From positions 872 through 64,871 of the forward strand of contig JAVCCC010000048.1 in NCBI GenBank assembly GCA_030765785.1: a stretch of 64,000 bases of DNA. Direction: 5' to 3'. The stretch is from Candidatus Aceula lacicola (GTDB lineage Bacteria; Omnitrophota; Gorgyraeia; Zapsychrales; Aceulaceae). Positions 33,563 to 59,330 of this stretch are shown in pieces; the first letter of the stretch is position 1; every line of letters starts with the position of its first letter. Under the pieces are notes generated by a model, which ran no database searches, was not told the DNA's origin, and saw nothing but the letters and a program-made list of their open reading frames with translations. A program made the translations under genes and the position numbers.

Positions 33563-34332
33563 AGCGAATCACATATCTGTTACTTATAATTTTGTTTTTT
33601 GGTGTCATGCCGATATCGTCGGCATCTAATGAGTGGAATGATTTAAAGAGTCGTCATTTTATTATTTATTATAAAAATGCGCCTCGCGAATTTATTAAAA
33701 CGGTCGAGCAGTCCGCAGAGGATTATTATTTTGATATTGTTGACGAGCTCGGTTTCACACGTGATCAGATTTGGACATGGGACGAGCGTGTAAAGATTTA
33801 TATTTACGACAATCAGCAAGACTATCTCACATTAGCTCGACAAGCTAGCTGGTCTGCCGGATCAACAATGCTGGGATCAAAAGTGATTCGAACATTTCCT
33901 TCGGCGCACGGATTTTTTGACTCTTTATTGCCGCATGAATTAGGGCATATTATTTTTAGAGATTATGTTGGTTTTGAATCCAATATCCCGCTTTGGTTTG
34001 ACGAGGGTGTTGCGATGTATCAGGAAAAGGCAAAGCGTTGGGGAGCAAATCAGGAGGTTAAATCTGCTATTCAGGATAAAAGTTTTTGTAGTTTATCCGA
34101 TTTAAGGCTAACACGAAAATCATCTCAAAGTGATGTAAATTTGTTTTATGCAGAATCAGCCAGCGTCGTGTATTATTTAATTTCTGAATTTGGAAGCTTT
34201 AAATTCTTAAATTTTTGTCGTAATTTAAAAAAAGGTTTATCATTTAACCGAGCACTTAAGAAGTCATATTATCGCTTTGAAAATGTTAATGACTTGAATA
34301 AAACATGGGTTGGTTATTTAAAAAATGAATAA
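33559..34332 (+). CDS. Secreted putative zinc metallopeptidase (HExxH...E, Peptidase_MA-like) embedded in the dcw cluster.
   Basis: Signal peptide MKRITYLLLIILFFGVMPISSASNEW. HELGH with a downstream Glu in WFDEGVAMY, the gluzincin arrangement. Confidence 0.5.
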   Translation: MKRITYLLLIILFFGVMPISSASNEWNDLKSRHFIIYYKNAPREFIKTVEQSAEDYYFDIVDELGFTRDQIWTWDERVKIYIYDNQQDYLTLARQASWSAGSTMLGSKVIRTFPSAHGFFDSLLPHELGHIIFRDYVGFESNIPLWFDEGVAMYQEKAKRWGANQEVKSAIQDKSFCSLSDLRLTRKSSQSDVNLFYAESASVVYYLISEFGSFKFLNFCRNLKKGLSFNRALKKSYYRFENVNDLNKTWVGYLKNE

Positions 34333-36677: not shown

Positions 36678-37431
36678 AAAGCAAAAATTTAGTTTTTCAT
36701 TTTTCGGAAGCCCGATTATTCGCTATGCGGTTGCATTTCTTTTTTTAGCATTCATTGTTTTTGTTTCCGCAAGAAAAATTTATTGGATGTTTAAGGATTT
36801 TTCTTATTTTCAAGTTCAGAAGATTATTTCTTTGTCGGGAGAGAATTTTAAAGATCAAGAGCGTTTTTCTTATTTAAAGGGAAAAAATATTTTTGAAATT
36901 GATTTAGTTGAGCTTCAAAAACAGCTCAAGTGGGCTTATCCTCAGGCAGAGCGCATTCGGGCATTAAGGCGTCTTCCAGATGCGATTGCAATTGATCTGA
37001 TTGAGCGAACGCCTGCCGCTTCTGTTTACATTAATCGGGTAACCGTTGTGGTTGATTCAGATGGATTTGTTGTTTCAAAAACTTTGAAGAATAAGAGGCT
37101 GCCATTAATTTCGGGTATTCCAAATCGTGCTGGCAATGTCCTTGTTGGACGAGCTATTCCAGACAAAAGCCTCCAGACTGCACTTTTGATTTTAAAGACG
37201 TTTGTAAAAGAATCTATTTTTTTAGATGTTCATTTGAAAAAGATTAATGTTGGGAATCTATCAAAGATTTATTGTTATTTTAGCAATGGGATTGAGATTA
37301 TTGTTGACCAGGATGATATTGTTAAGAAAGTTAAAAGTTTAAAGATGATTGCTGGTAAGGCAAATCTAGAGATTTCTAATATTCGTTATATCGATTTGCG
37401 TTTTAAAGAGCCGGTTATTAAAGAAAAATGA
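36652..37431 (+). CDS. ftsQ: Cell division protein FtsQ/DivIB-like (basic N-terminus, one TM, POTRA-like periplasmic domain).
   Basis: MARKPKRRKKQK basic tail, TM AVAFLFLAFIVFV; position between ddl and ftsA. Confidence 0.55.
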   Translation: MARKPKRRKKQKFSFSFFGSPIIRYAVAFLFLAFIVFVSARKIYWMFKDFSYFQVQKIISLSGENFKDQERFSYLKGKNIFEIDLVELQKQLKWAYPQAERIRALRRLPDAIAIDLIERTPAASVYINRVTVVVDSDGFVVSKTLKNKRLPLISGIPNRAGNVLVGRAIPDKSLQTALLILKTFVKESIFLDVHLKKINVGNLSKIYCYFSNGIEIIVDQDDIVKKVKSLKMIAGKANLEISNIRYIDLRFKEPVIKEK

Positions 37432-38654
37432 TTAAAGAAAAAATATATTGTGGGCTTGATTTAGGGTGTCAAAAAATCAAGGCTAGTATTATGCGTGCTC
37501 AAAAAGATCATGTGGATCTTCTGGGCGTTTCGCAGCTTAATACGCAAGGGCTGACAAGTTCATCCGTAAGTGATTTGCGAGAACTGTGCGACTGCATTCA
37601 TAGAATTTTATCCGGTTTGGCAAAGAAGACTGGAACAAAGGTTAAAAATATTAATTTGGGTTTTGGGGGACGTCTGATCGATAGCCGAGAAAGTCATGTG
37701 GTTGTTCCTTTGACAGACAGAGGAAGCAAGGTGATCACCTCGTTCGACCTTCGAAAAATTAATCGGCAAACTTGCCTTTTAGGTGTTGATTTGGATGAAC
37801 GATTATTCCATAATTTTCCGACGAAATATATTATTGATGGGTTTAATATCGCGACAAACCCTCTAGGGCTTTATGGACGCAAGATTGAGGCTAATAGCCT
37901 TTTGCTTGTTGCAAAGAATAATCTAGTTAACAATATGTACAAAGCTGTAAATCAAGCTGGCTTTGAGGTTTTGAATGTATTTTTTTCGTCTTTGTCGGCA
38001 GCAAAAGTTTGTCTTTCATCTCAACAAAAAAAGGATGGCTGCCTTTTTATTAGCATTGGCACAGAGGCAACAGATCTTTTATTTTTTAAGGACTATCTTC
38101 TCAAGGCCGTGCGCATTATTTCTTGGGGAGGGAATCATCTGACAAATGAAATTAGTGGAGCGCTTGGCCTTCCATTTGATTTGGCGGAGGATATCAAGCG
38201 CTCGTATGCTGTTGTTCCAGATCGTAGCAGCGAACAGGAAGAAGGTGAAATTTTAGTTAAACGGGATTCTGGATATATTCCAATACAGCGTTTAGATATT
38301 TCAAAGGCAATTTGTTTTTCTGTGAAAGAATTTATTTCTCAGATTTGCGAAGCTATAAAGAGTGTAGAGATTGGTAGTCATTTATCGGCTGGAATTGTTA
38401 TGAGTGGAGGGGGATCACTTTTACCTGGATTGCTTGAATGCATTGAGAAGGAAACTAAGCTTTCAACACATATGGGAAAAGTTAGCGTTGAGTCCAGACG
38501 TTTAAGTAGCCCGTCTGTTTATGCGGCTTCAATAGGGCTTGCGCAAGAGAGTCGTAAAGATTTGTTGAATAATATTTTTTCATCAAACGGGAATGCGTTA
38601 GTGTTTAAGCGTTTTTCGAATAGAGTTAAAGAAATTTATCAGGAGTATTTCTAA
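37428..38654 (+). CDS. ftsA: Actin-like cell division protein FtsA.
   Basis: Actin/HSP70 phosphate-1 motif (GLDLGCQKIKASI); SGGGSLLPGL near the C-terminus (actin-fold region). Confidence 0.7.
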   Translation: MIKEKIYCGLDLGCQKIKASIMRAQKDHVDLLGVSQLNTQGLTSSSVSDLRELCDCIHRILSGLAKKTGTKVKNINLGFGGRLIDSRESHVVVPLTDRGSKVITSFDLRKINRQTCLLGVDLDERLFHNFPTKYIIDGFNIATNPLGLYGRKIEANSLLLVAKNNLVNNMYKAVNQAGFEVLNVFFSSLSAAKVCLSSQQKKDGCLFISIGTEATDLLFFKDYLLKAVRIISWGGNHLTNEISGALGLPFDLAEDIKRSYAVVPDRSSEQEEGEILVKRDSGYIPIQRLDISKAICFSVKEFISQICEAIKSVEIGSHLSAGIVMSGGGSLLPGLLECIEKETKLSTHMGKVSVESRRLSSPSVYAASIGLAQESRKDLLNNIFSSNGNALVFKRFSNRVKEIYQEYF

Positions 38655-38656
38655 AA

Positions 38657-39628
38657 ATGAATGATTTAAAGAAATCGCGTGTTGCAGTAACTGGCGGAGC
38701 AGGATGCATTGGTTCTTTTGTTGTTGATGAGGTGATTAAACGAGGGGTTAAGGAAGTCGTTATTGTTGACAATTTTACTCGAGGATTAAAAAAGAATATT
38801 GAGCCAGCGATAGCTTCGGGTTGTGCTCGGCTAGTCGATGGAGACATTAGAGACTTTGATTTAATGAAAAAAACATTTAAAGGAATTGACTATTGTTTTC
38901 ATTTGGCGTCATTAAAGATTATTCAGTGCGTTGATGAGCCGCGTCACGCCTTAGAGGTAAACGTTGATGGAACATTTAATGTTCTTGAGGCTTGCGCAGA
39001 CAATAATGTGAAGAAAGCTGTATTTTCGTCCACGGCGTCCATTTATGGACAAGCAGATATTTTTCCTATCAAGGAAACACATCATCCTTATAACAGTCAC
39101 ACGCTTTATGGTGCGTTTAAGGTTGCAAATGAGTTGATGTTTCAATCTTTTTATCAGATGAGAGGGCTGAAGTTTAATACGCTTAGGTATTTTAATGTAT
39201 TCGGTCCTCGCATGGACGCGCATGGAAAATATACAGAGGTTTTAATTCGATGGTATCGCTTGATCAAGGAAGGTAAACAGCCGTTGATTTATGGTGACGG
39301 AAAGCAAACGATGGATTTTATTTATGTTGAGGATGTTGCAAGGGCAACCGTTTTGGCGCTTACAGCAGATATTTATAATGGAGTTTTTAATTGCGCAAAT
39401 GGGAAAGAGACGTCGCTAGAGGAGCTTTGTTGTGCATTGCTTGAGGTGATGGGTTCTGATTTAAAGCCAAAATATGTGCCGATACCAGAGGATCGAAATA
39501 AAATTGAAGTGATACGTCGCTTGGCAGATGTTTCAAAGGCGAAAGAAGAGATTAATTTTAAAGCACAAGTGACCTTAAAAGAAGGATTAAAGGAATTGGT
39601 GAAATGGCTGGAAACTCAGAAAATGTAA
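38657..39628 (+). CDS. NAD-dependent sugar-nucleotide epimerase/dehydratase of the UXS/ArnA-C-terminal type (UDP-glucuronate decarboxylase-like).
   Basis: GGAGCIGSFVVD Rossmann, DNFTRG, catalytic YGAFK. RYFNVFGPRMD matches the RIFNTFGPRM block of the UDP-xylose synthase/ArnA decarboxylase family rather than GalE. Confidence 0.65.
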   Translation: MNDLKKSRVAVTGGAGCIGSFVVDEVIKRGVKEVVIVDNFTRGLKKNIEPAIASGCARLVDGDIRDFDLMKKTFKGIDYCFHLASLKIIQCVDEPRHALEVNVDGTFNVLEACADNNVKKAVFSSTASIYGQADIFPIKETHHPYNSHTLYGAFKVANELMFQSFYQMRGLKFNTLRYFNVFGPRMDAHGKYTEVLIRWYRLIKEGKQPLIYGDGKQTMDFIYVEDVARATVLALTADIYNGVFNCANGKETSLEELCCALLEVMGSDLKPKYVPIPEDRNKIEVIRRLADVSKAKEEINFKAQVTLKEGLKELVKWLETQKM

Positions 39629-40887
39629 AGAAAATAATACCGATTACACGTCCGTTTTTTGGTGAAGAGGAGGTCGGTGCGGCATCCGAAGTCATTCGTT
39701 CAGGGTGGGTGACGCAAGGCCCTAAGGTAAAAGAATTTGAAGATGTTTTTGCTTCTTATGTTGGGTCAAAACATGCATGTGCTGTATCAAATTGCACAGC
39801 CGCACTTCATTTGGCTTTGTTAGCCGTTGGTGTTAAGCCAGGAGACGTTGTTATTACGGTCAGCCATTCTTTTATTGCAACGGCTAATAGTGCACGATAT
39901 TGTGGCGGTGAGCCAGTCTTTATCGATGTTGAAAAAGATGGTTTTAATATGTGCCCACAAGCCTTGAAGCAATTTTTGTCTAGTGAATGTGAGAAGCGGC
40001 CAAGCGGTTTGTTTTATAAAAACGTCAGCAAGCTTATTCGAAGCGAGTCGCCTTTATCGAGCCTCATTGGGGATGATAAAGGAAAGGTTGAGAATTTTGG
40101 GCGTATTGCTGCCATTGTTGTTGTTCATCAACTTGGCATTCCGTGTAATTTAAAAGAAATTTTGCCGATTGCGCAATCATATAAGATTCCTGTTGTTGAA
40201 GATGCAGCGTATGGAACGGGAAGCGAAATATCTTTGGATGATGGAAAAACATGGGAAAGAATTGGAAAGCCGCATGGAGATATTGCTTGCTTTTCATTTC
40301 ATCCAAGAAAGCCTATCGTGACAGGAGAGGGCGGTATGCTAACGACGAGCAATGAGGAATATGATGCATTATTTCGTCTGCTGCGGCATCAGGGCATGGC
40401 CGTATCCGACCTTGTTCGGCATCAATCAAAGAAAATTATCATCGAAGATTATATTGTGACTGGATATAACTATCGAATGACAGATATTCAGGCTGCTATT
40501 GGTATTGAGCAGTTAAAGCGATTGCCAGAGATGATGTGTCGAAAAAAAGAGGCAGCTCGGTTTTATTCTGAAAATCTCTCAGATATTTCTTGGCTAGAAA
40601 TATTTAAAGATTTATCTTATGCTCGCAGCAATGCGCATAATTATCCAGTTTTAATTGATAAGAACTCGCCAATGGATCGTGATTCTTTGATGCAGCACCT
40701 ATTGGATCGAGGTATTTCAACGCGCCCATGTGTTATGAATTCTCACTATGAAATTCCATACCGGTCCGATTTATGGTCGTTGCCAAATTCTGAAAACGCA
40801 AGGGACAACGGTCTTCTCTTGCCTATGTTTTATGAAATCACCGATGATGATCTTAAGAAAATAGTTGAGGAATTTAGAAATGTCTAA
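39604..40887 (+). CDS. DegT/DnrJ/EryC1/ArnB-family PLP-dependent sugar aminotransferase.
   Basis: PLP-lysine context FSFHPRKPIVTGEGGML. Overall DegT fold, with an approximately 45-aa insertion. Confidence 0.8.
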   Translation: MAGNSENVKKIIPITRPFFGEEEVGAASEVIRSGWVTQGPKVKEFEDVFASYVGSKHACAVSNCTAALHLALLAVGVKPGDVVITVSHSFIATANSARYCGGEPVFIDVEKDGFNMCPQALKQFLSSECEKRPSGLFYKNVSKLIRSESPLSSLIGDDKGKVENFGRIAAIVVVHQLGIPCNLKEILPIAQSYKIPVVEDAAYGTGSEISLDDGKTWERIGKPHGDIACFSFHPRKPIVTGEGGMLTTSNEEYDALFRLLRHQGMAVSDLVRHQSKKIIIEDYIVTGYNYRMTDIQAAIGIEQLKRLPEMMCRKKEAARFYSENLSDISWLEIFKDLSYARSNAHNYPVLIDKNSPMDRDSLMQHLLDRGISTRPCVMNSHYEIPYRSDLWSLPNSENARDNGLLLPMFYEITDDDLKKIVEEFRNV

Positions 40888-41533
40888 GAAATTACTCTTG
40901 TTTCCTTTTGGAGGTAGTGCGCGAGAAGCGTTTGTGACAATTCAGTCTTGTCCAGCCTTAGCGACCGAGTGGGATGTCATTGGTTTTGTCGATGATAATC
41001 CAGAAGCAAGAGAAAAAGAATGCTGTGGCGTTAAGGTTTTAGGAGGGCGCGAAGTTTTTGATGAGCATAAAGATGCTTATGTTTTAGCTGTTCCGGCACA
41101 TCCAGATATTTATTTAAAAAGAAAAGAAATCATTGATGGACTTAATATTGATTCCAAAAGATGGGCAACCATTGTTCATTCGTCTTGTGTTGTTTCTGAA
41201 GATACCAACATTGGAATAAATACTATTGTAATGCCTTTTGGCTTTGTTAGCACAAAAGTAAATATTGGAAATCATTGCGTTGTTTTATCAAGATCTATTA
41301 TTTCACACGATGTCCGTATTGCAGATTATTGTTGTTTTGGAGGGCATGTTACGATTTCTGGATCTGTGAAAGTTGACGAACAATCTTACATTGGGTCGTC
41401 TGTTACGATTCGTGAAAATATTCATATTGGAGAAAAGAGTTTAGTGGGAATGGGTTCCAATGTGATTTCAGATGTTGGCGCAAAGACAGTTGTTGCAGGA
41501 AACCCTGCAAAGGAAATTCGAAAAGCCGAATAA
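40865..41533 (+). CDS. PglD/NeuD-like hexapeptide-repeat sugar N-acetyltransferase.
   Basis: N-terminal Rossmann-like LLFPFGGSARE. C-terminal left-handed beta-helix hexapeptide repeats (IGNHCVV, IADYCCFGGHVTISGSV, IGSSVTIREN). Confidence 0.65.
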   Translation: MRNLEMSKKLLLFPFGGSAREAFVTIQSCPALATEWDVIGFVDDNPEAREKECCGVKVLGGREVFDEHKDAYVLAVPAHPDIYLKRKEIIDGLNIDSKRWATIVHSSCVVSEDTNIGINTIVMPFGFVSTKVNIGNHCVVLSRSIISHDVRIADYCCFGGHVTISGSVKVDEQSYIGSSVTIRENIHIGEKSLVGMGSNVISDVGAKTVVAGNPAKEIRKAE

Positions 41534-41560
41534 CAAAACAAATTAATCAAGGAAGCGCAT

Positions 41561-42481
41561 ATGATTTCAATTATTTTTCCCGTATTTAATGAACAAGAAA
41601 ATTTAGAAGAGTTGTATCAGCGTGTTCTTGCTGTTGCTTCAAAAGTGGATGGACATGATTTTGAGCTTGTTTTTGTTGATGATTGCTCGTCAGATCAAAC
41701 GCCAGAGATTTTGCGAAGTTTGCATTCGAAAGATAAGCGCGTCAAAGTCATTCGATTTGCTCGCAATTGTGGCGGACATGCGGCATTGACCGCAGGTCTT
41801 TATTATTGCAAAGGTGATTGCGCAATTACTTTAGCTGCAGATTTGCAGGATCCCCCAGAGCTTATTTTGGATCTAGTTGCAAGCTGGAAAGATGGTGCCA
41901 AGATTGTTTGGGCAGCTCGATCCAAGCGAGAGGGAGAAAGCCTTTCTGTGAAGGTTTTTTCAAAGCTTTATTATGCTTTTATTAACTTATTGACGGATGT
42001 GAAGATGCCAAATCTGGGGGTTGATGTTTTTTTAGCTGATCGTGTTGTTGTCGAATCACTTAAAAGTATGCCAGAAAAGCACAGCTCTATTTACATGGCT
42101 TTAGCTTGGCTTGGATTTCCTCAAACGACAATTGAATATGTTAAGGTAGCAAGGACAAAAGGTGCCTCTAAATGGAGTTTAGGCAAAAAGATAAAGCTGA
42201 TGATTGATTCGATCTTGTCTTTCAGTCATGTCCTTATTCGATATATGAGCATCTTGGGACTTGCGACAGCATTTGTTGGATTTGTTTATGCTGCATGGGT
42301 TGTTGGTAAAGCAATCTTTTTTGGATTGGCGGTTGAAGGGTGGTCTTCTTTGATTGTGGCCATTCTGGTTGTTGGTGGTGTCCAGATGATGATGCTTGGT
42401 GTTTTAGGAGAGTATTTGTGGCGAACATTTGATGAATCAAGACGAAGACCACGTTTTGTTATTGAATACAAAATTGATTAA
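41561..42481 (+). CDS. GT2 polyprenyl-phosphate glycosyltransferase, ArnC/DPM1/GtrB-like, with two C-terminal TM helices.
   Basis: ISIIFPVFNEQENL, DDCSSD (DxD), C-terminal TM pair. Same architecture as ArnC. Confidence 0.7.
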   Translation: MISIIFPVFNEQENLEELYQRVLAVASKVDGHDFELVFVDDCSSDQTPEILRSLHSKDKRVKVIRFARNCGGHAALTAGLYYCKGDCAITLAADLQDPPELILDLVASWKDGAKIVWAARSKREGESLSVKVFSKLYYAFINLLTDVKMPNLGVDVFLADRVVVESLKSMPEKHSSIYMALAWLGFPQTTIEYVKVARTKGASKWSLGKKIKLMIDSILSFSHVLIRYMSILGLATAFVGFVYAAWVVGKAIFFGLAVEGWSSLIVAILVVGGVQMMMLGVLGEYLWRTFDESRRRPRFVIEYKID

Positions 42482-42487
42482 AATTTT

Positions 42488-44320
42488 ATGAAGCAAAAAC
42501 ATTTTATATTTTCAATAAGCGTTCTAGCGCTTATGATGATCTCGCTTGTTGTCAAGCATCTCAGTCCGTCTTTAATCGAACATCTTTATGCAAATAAGCA
42601 GCTGCTTGTCCTAAATCTTTTTTCAGGTAATTTTGATGTAACTGTGCAATCGCTTGATTTCTATTTAGGGCGATCACGGGAAGTTGTTTTTGGACCGCTG
42701 AGCATGGTTTTATCCGGAATAGCGCTTATTCTATTTTGCTTGCGATACTTAAAACAATTAAATTTCTGGAAATTTACCGCTACTTTTTTCATTTATTTTG
42801 TAATCACAAAGTTTGAAGTTTTATTTTTTCCTCCTTATGGGGATTCGGCAAGCGGTCCTGTCATTGAAGCGATTTGGCTTTTGCATAATAATTTCAACTA
42901 TGCAAAGCTGGCTGGAGAAGAGGTGTTTGTTCGCGGAGGACCAAAGGTTTATTTGTTCTCGCTCTACCCAACGTATTTGGCATTGTTGATGAAAATGATT
43001 CCTCATACCAAGACATTTTTGGCAGTTAATCATTTAATCATTTTTGGTCTAAGTGCTGTGATTTTTTCTTTTTTCCGCTCAATCGCACGCAAGATTTTTG
43101 ATGAGAAATTGTCCGTCCTGTTGTCTATTTTTCTTTTATCTTTGCCGTTAGTTCAGAGTCAGATTGAACAAATCAATATGGAGATTCCTGTTTTATTTTT
43201 TATTGTATTGTCACTTTATTTTTTGTCCGAAAAAAAGATTTTGCATGCATCTATTTTTTCTGGTTTAGCCGTTTTCACTAAGCTTTATGCTGCGTATATG
43301 GGTGGGGCTGTGTTCTTTGTTGGGTTGTATTTATTTTTCTTTGGACAAGAACAGAAGAAAGATTTTAAGGTTCTTGGATCGAGCATTCTTTCTATATTCT
43401 TTGTGATCACAGGAGCCTTGTGCCTTTTTCTTTTTATGGATCTTGGCGGGAAGATTGATAAGGTAGGTGCGTTTCAGGGGTTTGCTCTGATGAAAACATT
43501 TCCGATTAGTTATTTTTATTTTTTAAGTTTAGTCGCATTTATTGCTTTTGCGTTTCGTGTTTTAAGGGAGCAAGGGAGGAACTCTTTCGACAATGTTGTC
43601 AATTTCTTAAACGATCATTACAGAGTAGTGGTTTTGTTTGTTTGTTCGACAGGATGGTTTGTTTTGTTCTTAAACTCTGGGTGGATCCCTCCACGGTATA
43701 CATTTATTTTGTTGCCGTCATTGATTTTAGGAATTTTTTACGTAATTCATATTCTCATCAGGAATAAAGAAATTGTGGCGCACGGAGTTATGGGTTTGAT
43801 TCTCGTCGAATTTTTGTGTTCATACGGTCTTGCATATACTCCTGTGACGATTCAAGATCATGCCATTGTGGAAAGAAGCCTTGAATATCGTAACGATGTT
43901 ATGTTGCATATGGAGCTCGCTCGTCTTGTTGAGCAAAAATATTCGAATTTAATCGTGGCAGCGCCTTTTACGTTTGCGCAAGCGTTGGCTTTTCCTGAAA
44001 TGGGTTTCACGCGAAAGAAATTAGATGTCATGATTTATTTGTTTCCCTGCACCTATGAGGGCATTAGGCATTTTGAAGGACTCGAGAACGTAAATCCAAG
44101 AGATGTTGTTTGGGTCGGAGTTAAAACGCCTTTTATGAAAATTGAATATCTCCCCAACGGGCCACATGACCTTGTCATTGAAGAATTGCAAGTTGGTAAT
44201 AAAAGTGCGAATTTATTTATTGGCGGGTTTTCTGTAAACGCTCTATATCATTATGGGCAGTCTTTGGTTAAGCAACTTGAGGCGCAAGGTATTAAGAAAT
44301 TAGAGCTTAAAGCCTACTAA
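42488..44320 (+). CDS. Large polytopic membrane protein, 610 aa, possible GT-C-fold glycosyltransferase.
   Basis: At least 12 predicted TM helices with a C-terminal soluble domain of about 150 aa. Context next to the ArnC-like GT2. Confidence 0.35.
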   Translation: MKQKHFIFSISVLALMMISLVVKHLSPSLIEHLYANKQLLVLNLFSGNFDVTVQSLDFYLGRSREVVFGPLSMVLSGIALILFCLRYLKQLNFWKFTATFFIYFVITKFEVLFFPPYGDSASGPVIEAIWLLHNNFNYAKLAGEEVFVRGGPKVYLFSLYPTYLALLMKMIPHTKTFLAVNHLIIFGLSAVIFSFFRSIARKIFDEKLSVLLSIFLLSLPLVQSQIEQINMEIPVLFFIVLSLYFLSEKKILHASIFSGLAVFTKLYAAYMGGAVFFVGLYLFFFGQEQKKDFKVLGSSILSIFFVITGALCLFLFMDLGGKIDKVGAFQGFALMKTFPISYFYFLSLVAFIAFAFRVLREQGRNSFDNVVNFLNDHYRVVVLFVCSTGWFVLFLNSGWIPPRYTFILLPSLILGIFYVIHILIRNKEIVAHGVMGLILVEFLCSYGLAYTPVTIQDHAIVERSLEYRNDVMLHMELARLVEQKYSNLIVAAPFTFAQALAFPEMGFTRKKLDVMIYLFPCTYEGIRHFEGLENVNPRDVVWVGVKTPFMKIEYLPNGPHDLVIEELQVGNKSANLFIGGFSVNALYHYGQSLVKQLEAQGIKKLELKAY

Positions 44321-45672
44321 GAGTCCTCACTCCAGAACGAATAAAAACTAAAAAAGACAATAGTCGGAAGAAGATAGAAGGCAATGCGACTTGCCGTGCA
44401 TTCTAGGCGCCAGGTAAGGTCGAAGTGTGCGGTTGTCAGGTAGACATATAATAAGGTGATAAAGAAGAGAGCGAAGAATGTCAGGAATATTTTGTTTTCA
44501 TTTCGAATGAGGTTTTTAGGTCTAAAGATTCCAAGAAGGACAACGAGCACCCATATAAAATTCCATCCTCGATTCAAAAGTTCTGTTTTATAAAACCCTA
44601 CAGTGGTAAGAAATCCCTTGATGTTACAGAATTCCAGCTCTTTTGTTAATGGATTAAATAAAACTTCTCTTGTCGGTGGCGCTAAGAATATTTTGAAAAT
44701 AAGAGTCGCCGCTCCTGTCATTGCGATGCCTATAAATAAGAATTTAATGATAGAGATTGCATTTGCACGATTTAAATCTTTATTTAAAAGAAGGTAGGCG
44801 GATGTAAGCCCTGATAGAAAGACGAGCATAACGATGCCTTCATTCTTTGCAAACGGCATAAACCCTAAGAAAAGCCCGGCGAGAAAAGCAATCCGATGAT
44901 TTTTTGTTCTAAGCATTGTTATAAGTAAAATGACACTTGAAAGAAGAAAATAGGATAAAATAACATCGGCATACTGTGTTGTGCTCCAGAAAATATAAGA
45001 CGGTGTTGACATAAGAAGAATGGAAGCAAGAAAGGCGATCCATTTTTTTATGAATTGAGACAATCCTGCATAAAGAAGAAGTCCGCAGGAAACTGAAAAT
45101 ATAATAGATGTCATTGATGCCGCAGCAATCATCCCTCTTTGAAATACCGAAAAAATCCATGTATTAATAAGAGGTAGAAGAATGGGGTAGCTTGGTTGCG
45201 TGTGCCAGTGAACCTTTGCGAAGTCTTTCCAGCGCTCTGCACCAAAAATAAGAAATTTTGCTTTCATGTTGTAAAGGCCCCACGCATCCCATCCTCCGAA
45301 AGGATATTGCTTTGATAAAATAGCGATAATAATAATAACGATACTCCAGCAGATGCCGCAGGTGACATAAAATTTGATATTGCTTTTTTGTTCAAGAAGA
45401 CTTTTGTCGTTATTGTCTGATGGAAAATAAAAGATATTGGCAATAAATAAGCCTAGCAATACGGTAAAATTGATTCCAAGGATAGCCGCTTGATTAAATT
45501 GGCCAAAAACAAAAAGGGAATAAAATGTCAACGTCGCAGACACGCCAATTCCAAGCCCAATAGAAAGGCAGAGTATGAGCGTCGTTGGAAGAGGTGGCTG
45601 ATCTTTTAAAATAATACGAATGATAAAGAACCCAATGAAAAGCGATATAAGGTAGGTTAAAAGATCAATCAT
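44317..45672 (-). CDS. Polytopic membrane protein resembling ArnT/PMT-type GT-C glycosyltransferases (GT39/GT83-like).
   Basis: 451 aa. About 11-12 TM helices and a short first-loop region rich in aromatic/acidic residues. Forms a minus-strand operon with 45665..46090 and 46374..48026. Confidence 0.4.
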   Translation of the reverse strand: MIDLLTYLISLFIGFFIIRIILKDQPPLPTTLILCLSIGLGIGVSATLTFYSLFVFGQFNQAAILGINFTVLLGLFIANIFYFPSDNNDKSLLEQKSNIKFYVTCGICWSIVIIIIAILSKQYPFGGWDAWGLYNMKAKFLIFGAERWKDFAKVHWHTQPSYPILLPLINTWIFSVFQRGMIAAASMTSIIFSVSCGLLLYAGLSQFIKKWIAFLASILLMSTPSYIFWSTTQYADVILSYFLLSSVILLITMLRTKNHRIAFLAGLFLGFMPFAKNEGIVMLVFLSGLTSAYLLLNKDLNRANAISIIKFLFIGIAMTGAATLIFKIFLAPPTREVLFNPLTKELEFCNIKGFLTTVGFYKTELLNRGWNFIWVLVVLLGIFRPKNLIRNENKIFLTFFALFFITLLYVYLTTAHFDLTWRLECTASRIAFYLLPTIVFFSFYSFWSEDS

Positions 45673-46090
45673 TATAGCGCTCCGAGATTATTTTTCCAAA
45701 AGGATTGATATAGGTAGGTTTCGCGCGAATAATAGATAAAATTGCTTTTGCAGAATCTGGAGTCGGTGCATTGATTATATTTATCTTATGGCCTGGATTG
45801 CTAAGATCAAGCAAAACAGGGGCAAGCATGTATTGGGCCATCATGAATTGTCCGTCGTTATCCTCGGGTGTCGGAGTTATATCGCTTAAGAACCCAACAG
45901 CAGTTTCGTCTTTCAACTTGTCCTTAAGGTCAAAGTATTGAAAACCAGGCTCAGTTGATCTGTTTCCAATCGTTGTGATTTGCGCCATGATGCTGACAAA
46001 GTTGACCGCAAGATTAATCGCAATCAGCAGAATAATAATTCCGATAATAAAGCTGGTTAAATATGATATTTTTTTATTTTTTATTTTCAT
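45665..46090 (-). CDS. Small membrane-anchored periplasmic protein (hypothetical).
   Basis: 141 aa with an N-terminal signal-anchor (FIIGIIILLIAINLAV). Overlaps the downstream gene by 8 bp. Confidence 0.35.
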   Translation of the reverse strand: MKIKNKKISYLTSFIIGIIILLIAINLAVNFVSIMAQITTIGNRSTEPGFQYFDLKDKLKDETAVGFLSDITPTPEDNDGQFMMAQYMLAPVLLDLSNPGHKINIINAPTPDSAKAILSIIRAKPTYINPFGKIISERYND

Positions 46091-46373
46091 GTTTTTAATA
46101 TTTGTTGAAAAACATTATAGCCTAAAAAGAACGCAAACACAATTTTTACGAGTAATTTAGAATAAAGATGGTAATTTGAAATATTTTCTCAAGAAGCAAC
46201 TTAACCTAAACAATCTGGATGTCAGTTGGCCATTTTTTTTAAAGATGGAGGTTCTAGATAAAGATTAACGCTAATAGCGTTGAAACAGTAAACGCTTTGC
46301 CTGTGAAAGCGATGGAACTTATGCCATTTGTTGTAATATATTCTTTGCAAAGCTGTAAAATCAGAAATATATT

Positions 46374-48026
46374 TTATGATAAAAGTTTTAATAAACGTTT
46401 TGGGAGAGAAATATTTCTTTTCTTTAATTCATTCAGATATTTTTCTGTTTCTCGTGATTTTCCTTCTCTTGAATAATCATAGAGAAAAAGCAAATATGCT
46501 CCGAGATTATCGGGATTAATTTCTAAGGCCTTATTTAAGAAAATTCTTGCTTCTTTTTTTCGATTTTGTCGATATCGTAACAGTGCAAAGCTTACATAAA
46601 TATCATCACCGGAAGGGTTGTATTTTACTTCTAAAAGGAATTCTCTTTCCGCTTTTTTAAGGTCACCTTCTTGAGCGTAAAGGTTTCCAAGGTTTTTATG
46701 AATTCTAATAAGTCTCGGATAAAGTGATAGAGCATAGAAATAACTTTTTTTTGCAGCCTCTTTAAATCCCATCATTTCGTACGTTCTGCCTAAATTGGCA
46801 TGAGCCGTTGGTAAGCTTGGCGAGCCTTGGACCGCCGCGTGCCAAAAATTCCAACTATTTTTAAGGATATTGCTATATTGAAAGGTTGTTCCGAAAAGCA
46901 AACTTATAGTAATAACAGTAAAAATAAAAAGTTTTTTTGGCTGTTGCACAAGTTTTTTTACAAGATTTGTTTCCATTAAAACAATTAGAAACCCGATTAA
47001 AGGAATATACATTCTATATTCATAAAAAGTAAGGCTAATGGCTAAGCCTGGTAAGAGGAACAATAAAAACCATAAAATTCCAAAAATGATATGCTTGATC
47101 CTTTTAGTTGGCGTTGCCCAGATAAGAAATCCGACAAAGAAAAAAACAATAATTCCAAAAATTAAAGAAGTGTTTTCGACAATCGGTGTTGGACAAAGGT
47201 TAAATGGTAAAATTGTTTTACCGAGATGAATTAGAAGGCTGGGCAAATTATGAAAAACAGATTTTAAAATAAGAAAAAGAGGCACTTCGGGAGATTGTGA
47301 AAGAACAGCGAAGCGTATAAGAAGCCAAGCACTAATAATCGATAGCCACGACAGCGGCAACCAAAGCTTTTGAATAAAAATCTTTTGTTTACAATATAAA
47401 AGGTAGGCGCAGAGCATCATTGCAATTGGGATAACGATGGCTGTTTCTTTTGTAAAAAGAGCAAAGATAAAAAAGAGTAAATGTCCAAAAAAATACCTTT
47501 TCTTGTCTGTTTCTAGAAAATACAAGAAATAAATGAAAGAAACTAAAACAAAAAAAGCAAAGAGAGTTTCTGTTCTGCCAGGAATCCACCCAACAGCAAG
47601 CGTCATCAAAGGGTGAACCGTAAAGATTAAAGAAAAACTAAGGGCAAGGGCTTTGTCGTATTTTAAGCGTTGAAATAAAAAGAAAACCAAACAGCAATTA
47701 ATCGCGTGCAAATTTAAATTTGTAAGCCGATAGCCCCAAAGTGAAGCTTTGTAAATAATGGTGTCGCTCATAAAGGAGAGCGTTAGAATAGGGCGATATA
47801 AAAAATCAGTTACAAAATCTGGTCTGAAGAAAGCTTCCAAAGCTCTTGACCAATCTTTTAAGAACCAGTGATACCGTATTAGCCAGACTTCATCATCAAA
47901 ATGTGTTAGATCAAAGAAGAGAGTTTTAAAAAATAAAAGAAATACGACAAAAACGATCCACCCATAAGGATGCCATGAAGAAAGAAAAATATTTGAAATG
48001 TTGAGAGATTTGTTTTCTTTTTTCAT
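46374..48026 (-). CDS. Multi-TM N-terminal domain fused to C-terminal TPR repeats. Architecture like TMTC/PMT_2-family O-glycosyltransferases.
   Basis: About 400 aa of hydrophobic helices followed by at least 3 TPR units (AHANLGRTYEMMGFKEAAKKSYFYALSLYP, IHKNLGNLYAQEGDLKKAEREF...). Confidence 0.5.
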   Translation of the reverse strand: MKKENKSLNISNIFLSSWHPYGWIVFVVFLLFFKTLFFDLTHFDDEVWLIRYHWFLKDWSRALEAFFRPDFVTDFLYRPILTLSFMSDTIIYKASLWGYRLTNLNLHAINCCLVFFLFQRLKYDKALALSFSLIFTVHPLMTLAVGWIPGRTETLFAFFVLVSFIYFLYFLETDKKRYFFGHLLFFIFALFTKETAIVIPIAMMLCAYLLYCKQKIFIQKLWLPLSWLSIISAWLLIRFAVLSQSPEVPLFLILKSVFHNLPSLLIHLGKTILPFNLCPTPIVENTSLIFGIIVFFFVGFLIWATPTKRIKHIIFGILWFLLFLLPGLAISLTFYEYRMYIPLIGFLIVLMETNLVKKLVQQPKKLFIFTVITISLLFGTTFQYSNILKNSWNFWHAAVQGSPSLPTAHANLGRTYEMMGFKEAAKKSYFYALSLYPRLIRIHKNLGNLYAQEGDLKKAEREFLLEVKYNPSGDDIYVSFALLRYRQNRKKEARIFLNKALEINPDNLGAYLLFLYDYSREGKSRETEKYLNELKKRNISLPKRLLKLLS

Positions 48027-55919: not shown

Positions 55920-56288
55920 ATGCTTATTATTTTTTTAAAGTTATTTCTAATGCAGATCGTTGTTGGTGCTGTTGTTGTCTTTATTCTCAAGAAAGTGCTG
56001 GATCATCAGCTTGTAGAGCTAGCCATCAAAACGTTTAAGAATGCAAAGCTTGAGCCAGATGACTTAAAGCTTGGAAGTATTCTTGCCAGTTCTCCGGGTA
56101 GTGTATCAAAAAAGATTCAAGATCGTGTTTCTCAAGTAGCTGAGAAAAAATTTGGTCGACCAATGTCCATTGTCATAAAAAAAGACAAAAATCTTAAAGG
56201 TGGATTGATTATTTATTTGAATAGTTCGATTATTGATTATAGTTTAGTAGGGCGCCTGAAAGAGGGCGGAATTATTAGAAAAATATGA
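55920..56288 (+). CDS. Small membrane-anchored hypothetical protein.
   Basis: 122 aa, N-terminal TM (IVVGAVVVFIL), charged C-terminal domain. No confident family assignment. Confidence 0.3.
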   Translation: MLIIFLKLFLMQIVVGAVVVFILKKVLDHQLVELAIKTFKNAKLEPDDLKLGSILASSPGSVSKKIQDRVSQVAEKKFGRPMSIVIKKDKNLKGGLIIYLNSSIIDYSLVGRLKEGGIIRKI

Positions 56289-57010
56289 ATTCAAAAGTCT
56301 TAGTTATTATTCCAGCGTTTAACGAAAGTGATAACATTGTTCACGTTATTGAGAATATAGAATCATCTGGGTTTGCTTGTGAGATTTTAGTGGTGGATGA
56401 TGGGTCTTGTGACGACACCTCTTCGGTCGCGCGATCGTGTGGCGTTGGGGTTGTTCGTTTGCCATTCAATTTGGGTATTGGTGGGGCCGTGCAAACTGGG
56501 TTTTTGTATGCGGCTCGATACGGATTTGATATTGCCATTCAATTTGACGGTGATGGGCAGCACGATGCTCAGTTTTTCAATAAGCTCATTGAGCCAATTG
56601 TCGCTGATCAAGCGGATGTGGTCGTTGGTAGTCGATTTTTACCACCAAATTTGGGATATCAATCTTCGTGGATCAGGCGCATTGGAATTCATTTCTTTTC
56701 ATGGTTGATTAGTTTTCTGACAGGCATGACAATAACTGATCCAACTTCCGGGTTTCGCGCCTGCGGCCGAAAGGTGATTAAAGTTTTTGCTTACGATTAT
56801 CCTTTAGACTTTCCGGAGCCAGAATCGATCATAGAGGTCAAGAAAACTGGAGCACGCATTGTTGAGATCCCCGTTCAAATGAAAGAGCGAATTTCAGGGC
56901 ATTCTTCCATTCGATACTTAAAAACTTTGTATTACATGGTTAAGGTTACATTTGCAATTTTATTGCGTATCATTCAAACTAAAAAACAGGTAGGTGATCA
57001 TGATGATTAA
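56285..57010 (+). CDS. GT2 glycosyltransferase, DPM1/GtrB-like, soluble catalytic domain.
   Basis: VIIPAFNESDNI, VVDDGSCDDT, DxD-containing GT-A fold. Confidence 0.7.
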   Translation: MNSKVLVIIPAFNESDNIVHVIENIESSGFACEILVVDDGSCDDTSSVARSCGVGVVRLPFNLGIGGAVQTGFLYAARYGFDIAIQFDGDGQHDAQFFNKLIEPIVADQADVVVGSRFLPPNLGYQSSWIRRIGIHFFSWLISFLTGMTITDPTSGFRACGRKVIKVFAYDYPLDFPEPESIIEVKKTGARIVEIPVQMKERISGHSSIRYLKTLYYMVKVTFAILLRIIQTKKQVGDHDD

Positions 57011-57344
57011 AACATTAACTTTTTTCTTATCAATTATAATCCTTTTTGTTATTATTGATTTTTCTCGGCGCGGAAAGCTGACATTCAAATATGCGATCGG
57101 TTGGCTTTGCTTAGGTGTTCTAGGTATTTTATTTACGGTATTTGACCAGCTTCTTTTTTCCCTATCGGATTTTTGTGGGTTTGCATTGATGAGTAATTTT
57201 ATTTTCTTCTCATTGTTTTGTTTTTTTGTTTTTTCAAGTCTTCTTTTATCAACGTTTTTATGTCAGCAGAATAAGCGAAATGATATCATGGCGCAAAAAA
57301 TTGCTTTGTTGGAAAAAGAAATAAAAACACTTAAAGGGGAATAG
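56994..57344 (+). CDS. Small membrane protein with DUF2304-like architecture.
   Basis: 116 aa, 3-4 TM helices then a short coiled C-terminus (KIALLEKEIKTLKGE). Overlaps the upstream GT2 stop. Confidence 0.4.
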   Translation: MIMMIKTLTFFLSIIILFVIIDFSRRGKLTFKYAIGWLCLGVLGILFTVFDQLLFSLSDFCGFALMSNFIFFSLFCFFVFSSLLLSTFLCQQNKRNDIMAQKIALLEKEIKTLKGE

Positions 57345-57348
57345 CTTT

Positions 57349-59310: not shown

Positions 59311-59330
59311 CATAAAAGCATAGAACAAAA

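Follow-up and report, generated by a model that had tools for sequence, protein, structure and literature searches.

A candidate lipid-carrier-dependent envelope glycosylation locus behind ftsA in Candidatus Aceula lacicola

The Gtr system comprises the flippase GtrA, the undecaprenyl phosphate (Und-P)-glucose synthase GtrB and a serotype-specific GT-C transferase, and the CsbB/YfhO systems are related to it. The Arn pathway (ArnA, ArnB, ArnC, ArnD, ArnE/F and ArnT) carries out the L-Ara4N modification of lipid A, and the PglF/E/D, LegB/C/H and VioA/B routes make 4-acetamido-4,6-dideoxy sugars. A locus resembling parts of each was found in the uncultured bacterium Candidatus Aceula lacicola (Omnitrophota), in a window of 64,000 nucleotides of contig JAVCCC010000048.1. 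Its genes probably specify a 'three-component' system that glycosylates the cell envelope by way of a lipid carrier, and the functional roles given below are predictions. Systems of this kind are well known, and several of the enzymes encoded here are unusual.

All eight open reading frames of a preliminary description of this DNA were recovered, and HMM classification upheld most of its family assignments; its observation is confirmed in part, and its interpretation is likewise partly supported. The module starts 2 nt past the stop codon of ftsA (37428–38654, plus strand; TIGR01174, 210.7 bits against a cut-off of 175.85), which ends a dcw cluster ordered ftsI-murE-murF-mraY-murD-ftsW-murG-(Peptidase_MA_2)-murC-ddl-ftsQ-ftsA. 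The plus-strand genes are spaced tightly enough for translational coupling and may be co-transcribed with ftsA. The module had been said to sit where ftsZ would normally be, which holds by position only: whether or not they carry the module, about 40 species of Omnitrophota all lack ftsZ behind ftsA, and the module has therefore displaced nothing.

The same order recurs behind ftsA in at least six other Omnitrophota genomes, with 44–81% protein identity, and the arrangement is therefore not due to chance. The locus is composed of three separately conserved units, namely SDR–aminotransferase, GT2–610-aa protein and 141-aa–451-aa protein, which are joined behind ftsA in the Aceula clade only. 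Elsewhere the SDR–DegT pair occurs with Gfo/LbH genes, the GT2–610-aa pair with methyltransferases and YfhO, and the 141-aa/451-aa pair next to YfhO in distant Omnitrophota (L135 and L136). Because this last pair exists independently in other members of the phylum, only adjacency in one clade ties it to the plus-strand genes, a point against the favoured explanation.

The SDR (38657–39628, plus strand, 323 aa) belongs to a GalE/WbpP-like lineage of extended SDRs. The closest solved structures are a UDP-GlcNAc 4-epimerase (6dnt, 204.9 bits), TmGalE (4zrm, 176.8 bits) and WbpP (140.1 bits), with hUXS at 111 bits; against NCBIfam the scores are 161 for galE, 41.6 for the UXS-type PRK11908 and 31.3 for ArnA. 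The Ser/Thr-Tyr-Lys triad is present (S125, T126 at the aligned catalytic position, Y151 and K155), and active-site comparison found neither the decarboxylase Glu nor the dehydratase Asp-Glu. S128 and M219 do not vary among 26 orthologs and stand at positions where all decarboxylases in a published signature table carry Glu and Arg/Lys, respectively (PMC12820599). The protein had been assigned to the UXS/ArnA-C type from its RYFNVFGPRMD block, taken as typical of UDP-GlcA decarboxylases. Its best relatives are instead 4-epimerases, 'RYFNVFGPR' is found in 6DNT as well, and the 'YFNV' signature is common to the SDR and the WbpP group. Since the SDR has Ser where decarboxylases need Glu and groups with GalE/WbpP, the suggested route from UDP-GlcA to a 4-keto-pentose is unsupported. 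The SDR also departs from true epimerases where conserved residues bind sugar and nucleotide, with M219 in place of Arg and 'R/K-I-T/I-H/Q-C' in place of 'ASVP'. We propose that it may supply a keto-sugar to the aminotransferase or, alternatively, act as a 4-epimerase. Being epimerase-like and devoid of any known residue set for free keto-sugar formation, it counts against the favoured explanation and leaves the first chemical step unaccounted for. The DegT gene follows that of the SDR in 32 of 34 metagenomic loci, and a gene resembling Gfo/Idh/MocA 3-dehydrogenases adjoins the pair in 28, including most of those from outside Aceula, where it could be the real keto-former; the window contains no such gene.

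The aminotransferase (39604–40887, plus strand, 427 aa) had been placed in the PLP-dependent DegT/ArnB family, in agreement with its match to PF01041 DegT_DnrJ_EryC1 (324 bits). It carries the lysine motif SFHPRKPIVTGEGG and an insertion of about 40 aa at residues 128–167. NCBIfam scores are 297.5 bits for PseC (TIGR03588), 268 for LegC and 242 for ArnB, all below their cut-offs, and PDB matches are ArnB (187 bits), perosamine synthase (169.5 bits) and the C3 enzyme WbpE (about 100 bits). The enzyme thus appears closest to C4 aminotransferases, and C4 is most likely the carbon aminated. The next gene (40865/40880–41533, plus strand, 222/217 aa) probably starts at ATG 40880, judging from comparison with the JGI gene call, with an 8-nt overlap with the DegT stop. 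Its product scores 167.4 bits to the NeuD/PglB/VioB model TIGR03570, above the curated cut-off of 160.8, and 78.7, 55.4 and 40.5 bits to the structures of VioB (7txp), Pcryo_0637 (7l7y) and PglD, in keeping with the PglD/NeuD-type hexapeptide N-acetyltransferase described previously; it is predicted to be a left-handed beta-helix enzyme of the NeuD/PglD/VioB family. Of the loci compared, only L009 and L010 have this gene in addition to the window; L008, L011, L012 and L014 lack it.

The GT2 (41561–42481, plus strand, 306 aa) appears to be a polyprenyl-phosphate glycosyltransferase of the GtrB/ArnC/PgfS type, with a cytoplasmic GT-A domain and two C-terminal TM helices (224–242 and 252–270). 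An earlier labelling as ArnC-like was right as to the family and the helices, but the protein is closer to GtrB (5ekp, 228.4 bits) and PgfS (NF047588, 223.6 bits, its best NCBIfam match) than to ArnC (136.5 bits by structure and 164.7 by NCBIfam model); DPMS scores 69.8 bits, and both NCBIfam matches are below cut-off. In the motif 92-AADLQD-97, Ala stands in place of the leading Asp of DXD, a residue proposed to be the catalytic base in this enzyme family (PMC12690121), and this loss counts against the favoured explanation. Elsewhere in the window, positions 56285..57344 (plus strand) encode a 241-aa PpgS/AglJ-like GT2 (PpgS NF058614, 111.3 bits; AglJ, 89.6 bits; both below cut-off) and a 116-aa DUF2304 membrane protein (63.3 bits). 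The equivalent position in L006 and L007 holds a 233-aa GT2. This pair is possibly a second polyprenyl-phosphate sugar synthase and a donor source for another GT-C.

The 610-aa protein (42488–44320, plus strand) is a GT-C-fold glycosyltransferase with a polytopic N-terminal domain and an alpha/beta C-terminal domain of about 165 aa. Its family is restricted to Omnitrophota and has no Pfam model, searches against NCBIfam returned no match, and the top structural match is Pmt4. It is presumably the cognate transferase for the GT2 product. The gene converges with that of the 451-aa protein (44317–45672, minus strand), the 3' ends sharing 4 nt. The latter is an all-helical GT-C-fold glycosyltransferase of PMT_2/GT39-like type that has no soluble domain of its own; as expected from its description as ArnT/PMT-like, it scores 32.9 with PMT_2, above the gathering threshold of 26.1, and its sole NCBIfam match is a weak one to the LA_3751/LA_3752 family. 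The 141-aa protein (45665–46090, minus strand), whose gene runs 8 nt into the start of the 451-aa gene, has a predicted topology of one TM helix (14–32) preceded by four Lys/Arg and followed by an extracytoplasmic domain of about 109 aa. It matches no Pfam family, is conserved in L006–L008 and presumably works with the 451-aa GT-C as a partner or subunit.

The 550-aa protein (46374–48026, minus strand) appears to combine a PMT_2-like polytopic domain with C-terminal TPR repeats in a TMTC-like architecture. That likeness, noted previously, stands for the domain order, although the PMT_2 match is weak (21.3 bits, below cut-off). The N-terminal 390 aa have 35,987 representative-cluster homologs, and 39 of 50 relatives match PMT_2. 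Directly after TM1, an invariant D44 is followed by D45, conserved as Asp in 49 of the 50; R78, H107, R151, K193 and E194 are also invariant. Alignment with the 451-aa family by hhalign gave 87.6% probability, and searching PDB sequences by profile gave no match. All three membrane proteins had been taken for GT-C enzymes: the 610-aa and 451-aa proteins have the fold together with conserved candidate catalytic acids (D119/E127 in the former, D129 in the latter), and for the 550-aa protein profile evidence suggests it. The gene has a lower GC content (0.327), is absent from L009–L014 and occurs only in Aceula lacicola among the compared loci. It is separated from its neighbours by a 283-bp spacer with terminator-like hairpins. 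It is a lineage-specific accessory insertion, probably a transcription unit of its own, and not part of a single conserved minus-strand operon as had been supposed.

The enzyme families, together with the gene linkage and its conservation, are consistent with the following order of steps. Cytoplasmic steps by the SDR and the DegT enzyme would make an amino sugar, most likely C4-aminated, from a common UDP-sugar, and in this species the NeuD/PglD/VioB-type enzyme would then N-acetylate it. The GtrB-like GT2 would load the sugar onto undecaprenyl phosphate, and after flipping the 610-aa GT-C would pass it on to an acceptor at the periplasmic face. The locus contains no flippase gene, a further point against this scheme. 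Additional GT-C transferases would be provided by the 141-aa/451-aa pair and the 550-aa TPR enzyme, using the same donor or another, for example one made by the PpgS-like GT2 at 56285. Candidate skeletons for the sugar are a hexose, a 6-deoxyhexose or a pentose, and candidate acceptors are LPS/lipid A, envelope proteins or another glycan.

Protein O-glycosylation in the manner of the Pgf system is an unlikely alternative. The SDR would be a PgfE-like UDP-GlcNAc/UDP-Glc 4-epimerase, the PgfS-like GT2 would form Und-P-HexNAc, and PgfM1/PgfM2-like GT-Cs would glycosylate protein segments outside the cytoplasm, which may belong to cell-wall or division proteins. The DegT enzyme and the acetyltransferase would then work for a different glycan, on a 4-keto-6-deoxy sugar supplied by a dehydratase encoded elsewhere. 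The epimerase relatives and 'YFNV' signature of the SDR, the PgfS match of the GT2, the Pmt4 match of the 610-aa protein and the adjoining TMTC-like TPR protein all favour this reading, and the streptococcal Pgf operon likewise contains a GT-A, an epimerase and two GT-Cs. Pgf glycosylates PBPs, MapZ, RodZ and PrsA (PMC12041528), which fits a dcw operon location. However, the linkage of SDR and DegT across phyla argues for one substrate chain, the SDR departs from true epimerases at the sites given above, every match to a Pgf model falls below its curated cut-off, the 610-aa and 451-aa proteins match no Pgf model, and no real ORF in the window has a Ser/Thr-rich tract.

It is more doubtful that there is no single pathway, the three gene pairs and one inserted gene being chance neighbours at the dcw end in one clade and serving different glycans. 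Each pair is indeed found alone elsewhere, and the 550-aa gene is confined to this species and lower in GC. Against this, the SDR–DegT–GT2 linkage also exists outside the Aceula clade (L053 and L054), the plus-strand packing would permit translational coupling, and the composite is intact although its membrane proteins have diverged to 44–53% identity across species. Least probable is an Arn-type pathway, in which oxidative decarboxylation of UDP-GlcA by the SDR gives a UDP-4-keto-pentose, DegT makes the 4-amino-pentose, and this sugar, acetylated instead of formylated, is loaded onto Und-P for an ArnT-like GT-C to pass to lipid A. Both the SDR scores (the 4-epimerase at 205 bits and UXS at 111, with 31 and 42 for the ArnA and UXS-type models) and its invariant Ser128 and Met219 argue against decarboxylation, the GT2 is nearer GtrB and PgfS, no UDP-glucose or UDP-GlcNAc 6-dehydrogenase is among the conserved neighbours in the 34 SDR–DegT loci, and ArnD, ArnE/F and a formyltransferase are all missing from the window.

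Compared with Arn, the favoured three-component system shares the logic of SDR, DegT, N-acyltransferase, Und-P GT2 and GT-C, and homologs or fold relatives of ArnB, ArnC and ArnT can be recognised among its proteins; its SDR is not of the decarboxylase type, its left-handed beta-helix acetyltransferase replaces a formyltransferase of another fold, and Arn equivalog scores are far below cut-offs. The trio of SDR, DegT and acetyltransferase is that of the PglF/E/D, LegB/C/H and VioA/B routes, but those start with a 4,6-dehydratase carrying Thr-Asp-Glu or Asp-Lys where the SDR has Ser/Thr-Ala-Ser, and their products go to cytoplasmic glycosyltransferases or nonulosonic acid synthesis, with no GtrB-type enzyme. 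With Pgf (PgfS, PgfE, PgfM1 and PgfM2) the locus has in common a PgfS-like GT-A with TM helices, a GalE-like SDR, two GT-Cs and an extracytoplasmic site of action. It differs in the added aminotransferase and acetyltransferase, a diderm host and a GT2 score well short of the equivalog cut-off of 500. The 550-aa protein resembles the eukaryotic protein O-mannosyltransferases TMTC1–4/PMT in its domain order and its Asp44-Asp45, and differs in its bacterial origin and its membership of a very large prokaryotic family. In relation to Gtr, the locus lacks a GtrA-like flippase, has amino-sugar tailoring genes upstream and other GT-C families, and has Ala for the first DXD Asp; like the Gtr and CsbB/YfhO systems, it pairs a full-length GtrB homolog with GT-C-fold transferases, whose families are accompanied by YfhO genes elsewhere in the phylum.

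The SDR and 451-aa proteins of the window are 100% identical to proteins that NCBI places in a Candidatus Aceula lacicola MAG (Omnitrophota, PVC group), and a 430-kb JGI metagenome contig matches the window. All eight open reading frames put forward for the locus (38657-48026) in the preliminary description are present. The first plus-strand gene, which encodes the SDR (38657-39628), begins 2 nt past the stop codon of ftsA (37428-38654, plus strand). It is followed by genes for a DegT-family aminotransferase (39604-40887), an acetyltransferase (40865/40880-41533), a GT2 enzyme (41561-42481) and a 610-aa membrane protein, with intergenic spacings downstream of the SDR gene of -25, -8, +27 and +6 nt; the value of -8 applies to the acetyltransferase start at the ATG at 40880, which is also the JGI gene call. 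The 610-aa gene is convergent with the minus-strand gene of a 451-aa protein (44317-45672), the two overlapping by 4 nt, and a 141-aa gene (45665-46090) shares 8 nt with the beginning of the 451-aa gene. An interval of 283 bp sets apart the last minus-strand gene, for a 550-aa protein (46374-48026). Two terminator-like hairpins lie in this interval on the strand of the 550-aa gene; they are consensus matches only and are used descriptively, since the scans for promoters and terminators did not, overall, rise above background. The 550-aa gene is situated in the 46-48 kb bin, which has the lowest GC content of the region (0.327). Every 2-kb bin of the window (1-64000) has a positive GC skew, and nearly all window genes lie on the plus strand, the three minus-strand genes at 44317-48026 being the sole sizeable exception.

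Upstream, the window carries the housekeeping genes ftsK, pgsA, rib genes, fabF/G, ligA, an xerC-like gene, truB and ribF, and next a complete dcw cluster comprising mraZ, rsmH, ftsI, murE, murF, mraY, murD, ftsW, murG, a Peptidase_MA_2 gene, murC, ddl, ftsQ and ftsA. The Peptidase_MA_2 gene (33559-34332, 257 aa) occupies the same place between murG and murC in L006, L007 and L008 (L numbers denote comparison loci from other genomes and metagenomes, mostly Omnitrophota), and no murB was seen in the dcw cluster around it. On the 3' side of the locus lie a tRNA-Arg gene and the glycine-cleavage operon. Also downstream, at 58432-62681, are genes for an AAA_22 ATPase, a T2SS-C-like protein, a secretin and a protein with TPR and coiled-coil parts, a set that resembles an outer-membrane apparatus for secretion or of pilus type; L136 has a comparable secretin cluster close to its 451-aa homolog. 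Searches of the literature on Omnitrophota glycosylation and dcw yielded no account of the locus.

The module had been described as sitting where ftsZ normally lies. There is indeed no ftsZ behind ftsA. The ftsZ motif GGGTG[STA]G is missing from every frame of the window, and an FtsA scan over one genome per GTDB species, which returned 43 loci (about 40 from Omnitrophota, 28-77% identity), showed an FtsZ signature within 10 kb of the gene at one locus only, which is not from Omnitrophota, and at none of the other 42. In the seven loci inspected, none of the open reading frames downstream of ftsA is FtsZ-like. At loci that lack the module, unrelated genes come after ftsA, and in several genomes yggS-like and proC-like genes, for example, directly adjoin it; in many bacteria, yggS and proC sit just after ftsZ. 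The dcw cluster ends at ftsA across Omnitrophota, with or without the module, so the module did not displace ftsZ, and that part of the description holds by position only. As dcw genes are listed as conserved in Omnitrophota in a published survey (PMC12283558), ftsZ is presumably located elsewhere in the genome.

The SDR had been assigned to the UXS/ArnA-C type, an assignment rejected on model scores and active-site residues; the scores favour the GalE/WbpP lineage. Its best solved relatives are 6DNT, a UDP-GlcNAc 4-epimerase structure (204.9 bits over residues 4-321), Thermotoga GalE (176.8 bits) and WbpP (140.1 bits), with dTDP-glucose dehydratase and human UXS at about 111-112 bits. Among the NCBIfam models, galE scores 161.3 bits (under its TIGR01179 cut-off of 262.3), the UXS-type PRK11908 41.6 bits and ArnA 31.3 bits. 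The 'RYFNVFGPR' block that had been read as a decarboxylase hallmark is found in 6DNT as well and is therefore not diagnostic of decarboxylases. Enzymes of the UXS/ArnA-C group carry a Glu two residues past the catalytic Ser/Thr (hUXS E120, ArnA E434) and an Arg at hUXS R277 or ArnA R619, and their active-site motif is Thr/Ser-Ser/Ala-Glu, compared with Thr-Asp-Glu in 4,6-dehydratases (PMC12820599). The corresponding motif of the SDR is S125-T126-A127-S128, of which S128 is invariant in 26 orthologs. Met219 is likewise invariant ('GKQTMDF'), with Arg at this position in 6DNT and WbpP ('SRDF'); we take it to be the counterpart of hUXS R277, on the basis of the hUXS sequence 'SQTRAF'. Decarboxylase identity was rejected on the scores together with S128 and Met219 in place of Glu and Arg. 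A 4,6-dehydratase of the RmlB/LegB/PglF kind, recognized by Thr-Asp-Glu, or by Asp-Lys in PglF/PseB, beside the catalytic residue, was also rejected: the SDR has Thr-Ala-Ser at the diagnostic position and remains below the cut-offs of RmlB (TIGR01181, 136.7 versus 365) and LegB (TIGR04180, 158.5 versus 475).

The catalytic triad is kept: T126 aligns with the catalytic position, at which orthologs have Ser or Thr, and Y151 and K155 are the other two members. The substrate-binding signatures of the WbpP group (ASVP, xxRDF and DVRHS) are missing, the SDR having 'LKIIQC' for 'ASVP', 'QTMDF' for 'QSRDF' and 'EVIRRL' for 'DIKHSL'. By its triad and top matches the protein classifies as epimerase-related, yet not as an ordinary epimerase. 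Further invariants of the family, seen in alignment A7, are Cys91 and 'HHPYN'.

The SDR family is large, with more than 6,700 matches at E<1e-40 and occurrence on no fewer than 599 metagenomic stretches. Its neighbours were counted at 34 metagenomic loci for which 9 kb of sequence or more is available. At 32 of these, which come from diverse environments, a DegT gene lies directly 3' of the SDR gene, which argues for one common substrate chain. A Gfo/Idh/MocA oxidoreductase resembling UDP-GlcNAc 3-dehydrogenase is present at 28 and a small LbH acyltransferase at 19 of the 34, and many have a second DegT; there is no sugar 6-dehydrogenase among the conserved neighbours at the 34 loci. A search of the window for Gfo/Idh/MocA, formyltransferase, ArnF-like, B12-radical SAM and paralogous SDR or DegT genes found none. 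A 2,3,4-triacetamido-arabinose route, prompted by the Gfo, LbH and second DegT neighbours elsewhere, was dropped because these genes and a 6-dehydrogenase are missing here.

Two other Omnitrophota loci, L053 and L054, have the SDR-DegT pair followed by a GtrB-like GT2. L054 (14583-16841) adds a small ArnF-like membrane protein and an ArnA-N-like formyltransferase, which scores 181 bits against PRK06988 and stays under the fmt cut-off. The gene set of L054 is far more Arn-like than that of the window, where neither of these two proteins has a match. A theme that recurs in the SDR-DegT neighbourhoods, L053 and L054 included, is the loading of an amino sugar on a lipid carrier, with N-acylation as an optional preceding step. 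The N-acylation gene is for acetyl transfer in the window, L009 and L010 and for formyl transfer in L054; L011, L012, L014 and L008 have none.

The origin of the keto sugar can be read in two ways. We lean, if only gently, towards the SDR being itself the keto-former, by a non-canonical route; the near-constant DegT neighbour and the replaced epimerase motifs are in keeping with this. The alternative, plausible though not the reading we would choose, is that the SDR is an epimerase, as its triad and closest relatives would have it, and that an unlinked enzyme supplies the keto sugar; the single substrate chain for which the SDR-DegT linkage argues fits this less readily than it fits an SDR that forms the keto sugar itself.

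The preliminary assignments of the next two genes are borne out. The DegT protein scores 324 bits against PF01041 (cut-off 19.8), and its PLP-binding Lys motif, of the 'SFHxxK' type, reads SFHPRKPIVTGEGG in the translation. The top matches are C4 aminotransferases (the PseC, LegC and ArnB models, and the structures of ArnB and perosamine synthase), with the C3 enzyme WbpE scoring much lower. Equivalence to ArnB itself was rejected at 242.1 versus a cut-off of 631 (NF008658). An insertion of about 40 residues (about 128-167) splits the model and structure matches of the DegT protein in two, and its orthologs are long as well (402-427 aa). The acetyltransferase, proposed to be a PglD/NeuD-type hexapeptide N-acetyltransferase, clears the curated NeuD/PglB/VioB cut-off (TIGR03570, 167.4 versus 160.8) and scores 42.2 bits against Hexapep, though its PglD_N domain (PF17836) falls under the threshold (18.7 versus 23.4). 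Its best solved relatives are VioB (the best PDB match), Pcryo_0637, PerB and PglD, each of which, as far as is known, modifies a nucleotide sugar at its 4-amino group.

The GT2 aligns with Synechocystis GtrB (5EKP) over residues 2-301 at 228.4 bits, compared with 136 bits for ArnC and 70 bits for DPMS. With a GT-A domain, a hairpin of predicted TM helices (224-242 and 252-270) and full-length homology, it has the sequence characteristics of the GtrB/ArnC/DPMS polyprenyl-phosphate glycosyltransferases. Of its earlier description as ArnC-like with C-terminal TM helices, the helices stand; GtrB is the higher-scoring relative, and the ArnC equivalog model gives 164.7 versus a cut-off of 529. The best NCBIfam match is streptococcal PgfS (223.6 versus 500), so that neither ArnC nor PgfS equivalog status is retained, both scores being under the curated cut-offs. 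The DADLQ(D/N/H) motif is described as conserved family-wide; metal binding falls to its second Asp and its Gln, and its first Asp has been proposed as the base in catalysis by all polyprenyl-phosphate glycosyltransferases (PMC12690121). Residues 92-97 of the GT2 read AADLQD, with the metal ligands D94 and Q96 kept; five of six Omnitrophota orthologs have Ala for the first Asp or lack it. Another candidate donor synthase is encoded 8 kb downstream (56285-58341), where a 241-aa PpgS/AglJ-like GT2 and a 116-aa DUF2304 membrane protein are followed by a 330-aa GT2; L006 and L007 have a GT2 at the same position.

For the three membrane proteins, a GT-C fold is predicted in confident models of the 610-aa and 451-aa proteins, the latter with a conserved loop Asp, in agreement with the original proposal. 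The 610-aa family has 63 detectable homologs, and those named by organism are all from Omnitrophota and all annotated as hypothetical. A sub-threshold Pfam match to PMT_2 occurs in 7 of 48 members, and the family profile reaches PIG-M at E 3.4e-6. D119 is Asp or Glu in 48/48 members and E127 is conserved in 47/48; profile alignment places both in the loop after the helix equated with TM1 of the PMT_2-type core. Membership of ArnT (GT83) was rejected for the 451-aa and 610-aa proteins, neither of which matches it at the sequence level.

The 141-aa protein, whose gene is coupled to that of the 451-aa protein, is predicted to be membrane-anchored with an extracytoplasmic domain, and we infer that it may supply the periplasmic domain which the 451-aa protein is missing. 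The pair is kept in distant Omnitrophota, where it lies beside YfhO and not beside the GT2 or 610-aa gene. In two such loci (L135, 7579-11727; L136, 634-11717), the small protein and the 451-aa homolog are followed by a YfhO-family GT-C of about 790 aa, near a polyprenyl synthase gene. L136 also encodes three large proteins with TPR repeats; two of them, at 21% and 24% identity, are similar to the 550-aa protein.

The N-terminal domain of the 550-aa protein falls in a very large family, which numbers 35,987 representative clusters. In a sample of 50 relatives, 39 have a PMT_2 match and all have TPR repeats; the protein itself has clear TPR repeats and scores 21.3 against the PMT_2 threshold of 26.1. 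In this family Asp44 is invariant and Asp45 is Asp in 49/50, directly past the first TM helix. When PDB sequences were searched with profiles for the 451-aa family and for the N-terminal domain of the 550-aa protein, nothing meaningful came back, nor did a single-sequence search with the 451-aa protein give a match; the putative GT-C status of the 550-aa protein thus rests on profile evidence. With hhalign, the single 550-aa sequence aligns weakly with the 451-aa profile (27%) and the 610-aa profile (0.5%); the comparison became informative only when its family profile was used, which matches the 451-aa family at 87.6%. Profile-profile alignment ties all three families together (79-88% probability) and stacks Asp44/45 of the 550-aa family on the invariant Asp129 of the 451-aa family and on Glu127 of the 610-aa family.

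The gene order ftsA-SDR-DegT-(acetyltransferase)-GT2-(insert)-610aa, facing the 451-aa gene and its small partner, recurs in L009, L010 (Ca. Aceula meridiana), L011, L012, L014 and L008, and partly in L047. The proteins of these relatives are 44-81% identical to those of the window, and recurrence of the same order at such identities rules out a chance arrangement. The locus is a composite of three units, SDR-DegT, GT2-610aa and 141aa-451aa, each of which is independently conserved. GT2 and 610-aa genes are linked in 9/9 contexts, including L002/L003 and L004/L005, where they lie far from ftsA with class I SAM methyltransferases; the 141aa-451aa pair is also intact in 9/9 contexts. Only in the Aceula clade are the three units joined behind ftsA. 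Within this clade the acetyltransferase, a B12-binding radical SAM gene and a second 610-aa paralog are variable, and the 550-aa gene is found only in the species of the window. The radical SAM gene lies between the GT2 and 610-aa genes in L008 and L010 and, judged by spacing, in L012 and L014. It encodes a 482-aa protein (L008 8556-10004 and L010 15087-16535, 58% identical; about 14400-15900 in L012/L014) that weakly resembles HpnJ, HpnR and C- or P-methyltransferases. The tandem second GT-C copy of 610-aa type, in L007 (8163-9971, corresponding to L011 14432-16216), is 602 aa long and 35% identical to the window protein.

The best-supported mechanism would be a five-step route, in which an amino sugar is made in the cytoplasm, acetylated, loaded on Und-P by the GtrB-like enzyme, flipped across the membrane as the lipid-linked sugar and transferred by the 610-aa GT-C; the remaining GT-C enzymes would act in parallel or in sequence. 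Acceptors compatible with the data, by analogy, would be lipid A/LPS (as for Arn, Flm and Lgm), envelope proteins (PMT, TMTC and Pgf) and wall glycans. A scan of the window for Ser/Thr-rich acceptor tracts matched spurious antisense open reading frames only.

Omnitrophota are widespread, uncultured and very small bacteria, and we know of no work on their surface chemistry. The locus offers a concrete, testable route to a lipid-linked amino sugar in this phylum. New features are an unannotated GT-C family (the 610-aa proteins) confined to Omnitrophota, the conserved pairing of a GT-C with a small partner protein, and attachment of the module to the dcw operon in one clade; two GT-C families are thereby defined that databases label 'hypothetical' or generically 'GT39'. 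[quoted passage not shown] It could conceivably be, although we consider it improbable as a whole, that the locus is a division- or wall-coupled glycosylation machine at the dcw end of the Aceula clade, in which a GalE-descended SDR acts as net keto-sugar synthase feeding the aminotransferase, and a GtrB-type enzyme is active without the supposedly universal base Asp. The proteins of peptidoglycan synthesis or of division, or the nascent wall, would then be decorated by a hitherto unrecognised GT-C family specific to Omnitrophota and by a split GT-C with its small subunit in the periplasm.

The kind of system is already known, so the finding matters mainly to specialists. A complete Arn system includes the ArnA-N formyltransferase, the ArnD deformylase and the ArnE/F flippase, none of which is among the open reading frames of 38657-48026. 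[quoted passage not shown] The tight attachment to dcw suggests that glycosylation is co-expressed with wall synthesis, and it is possible that the Pgf targets, PBPs and division proteins among them, give this linkage its meaning.
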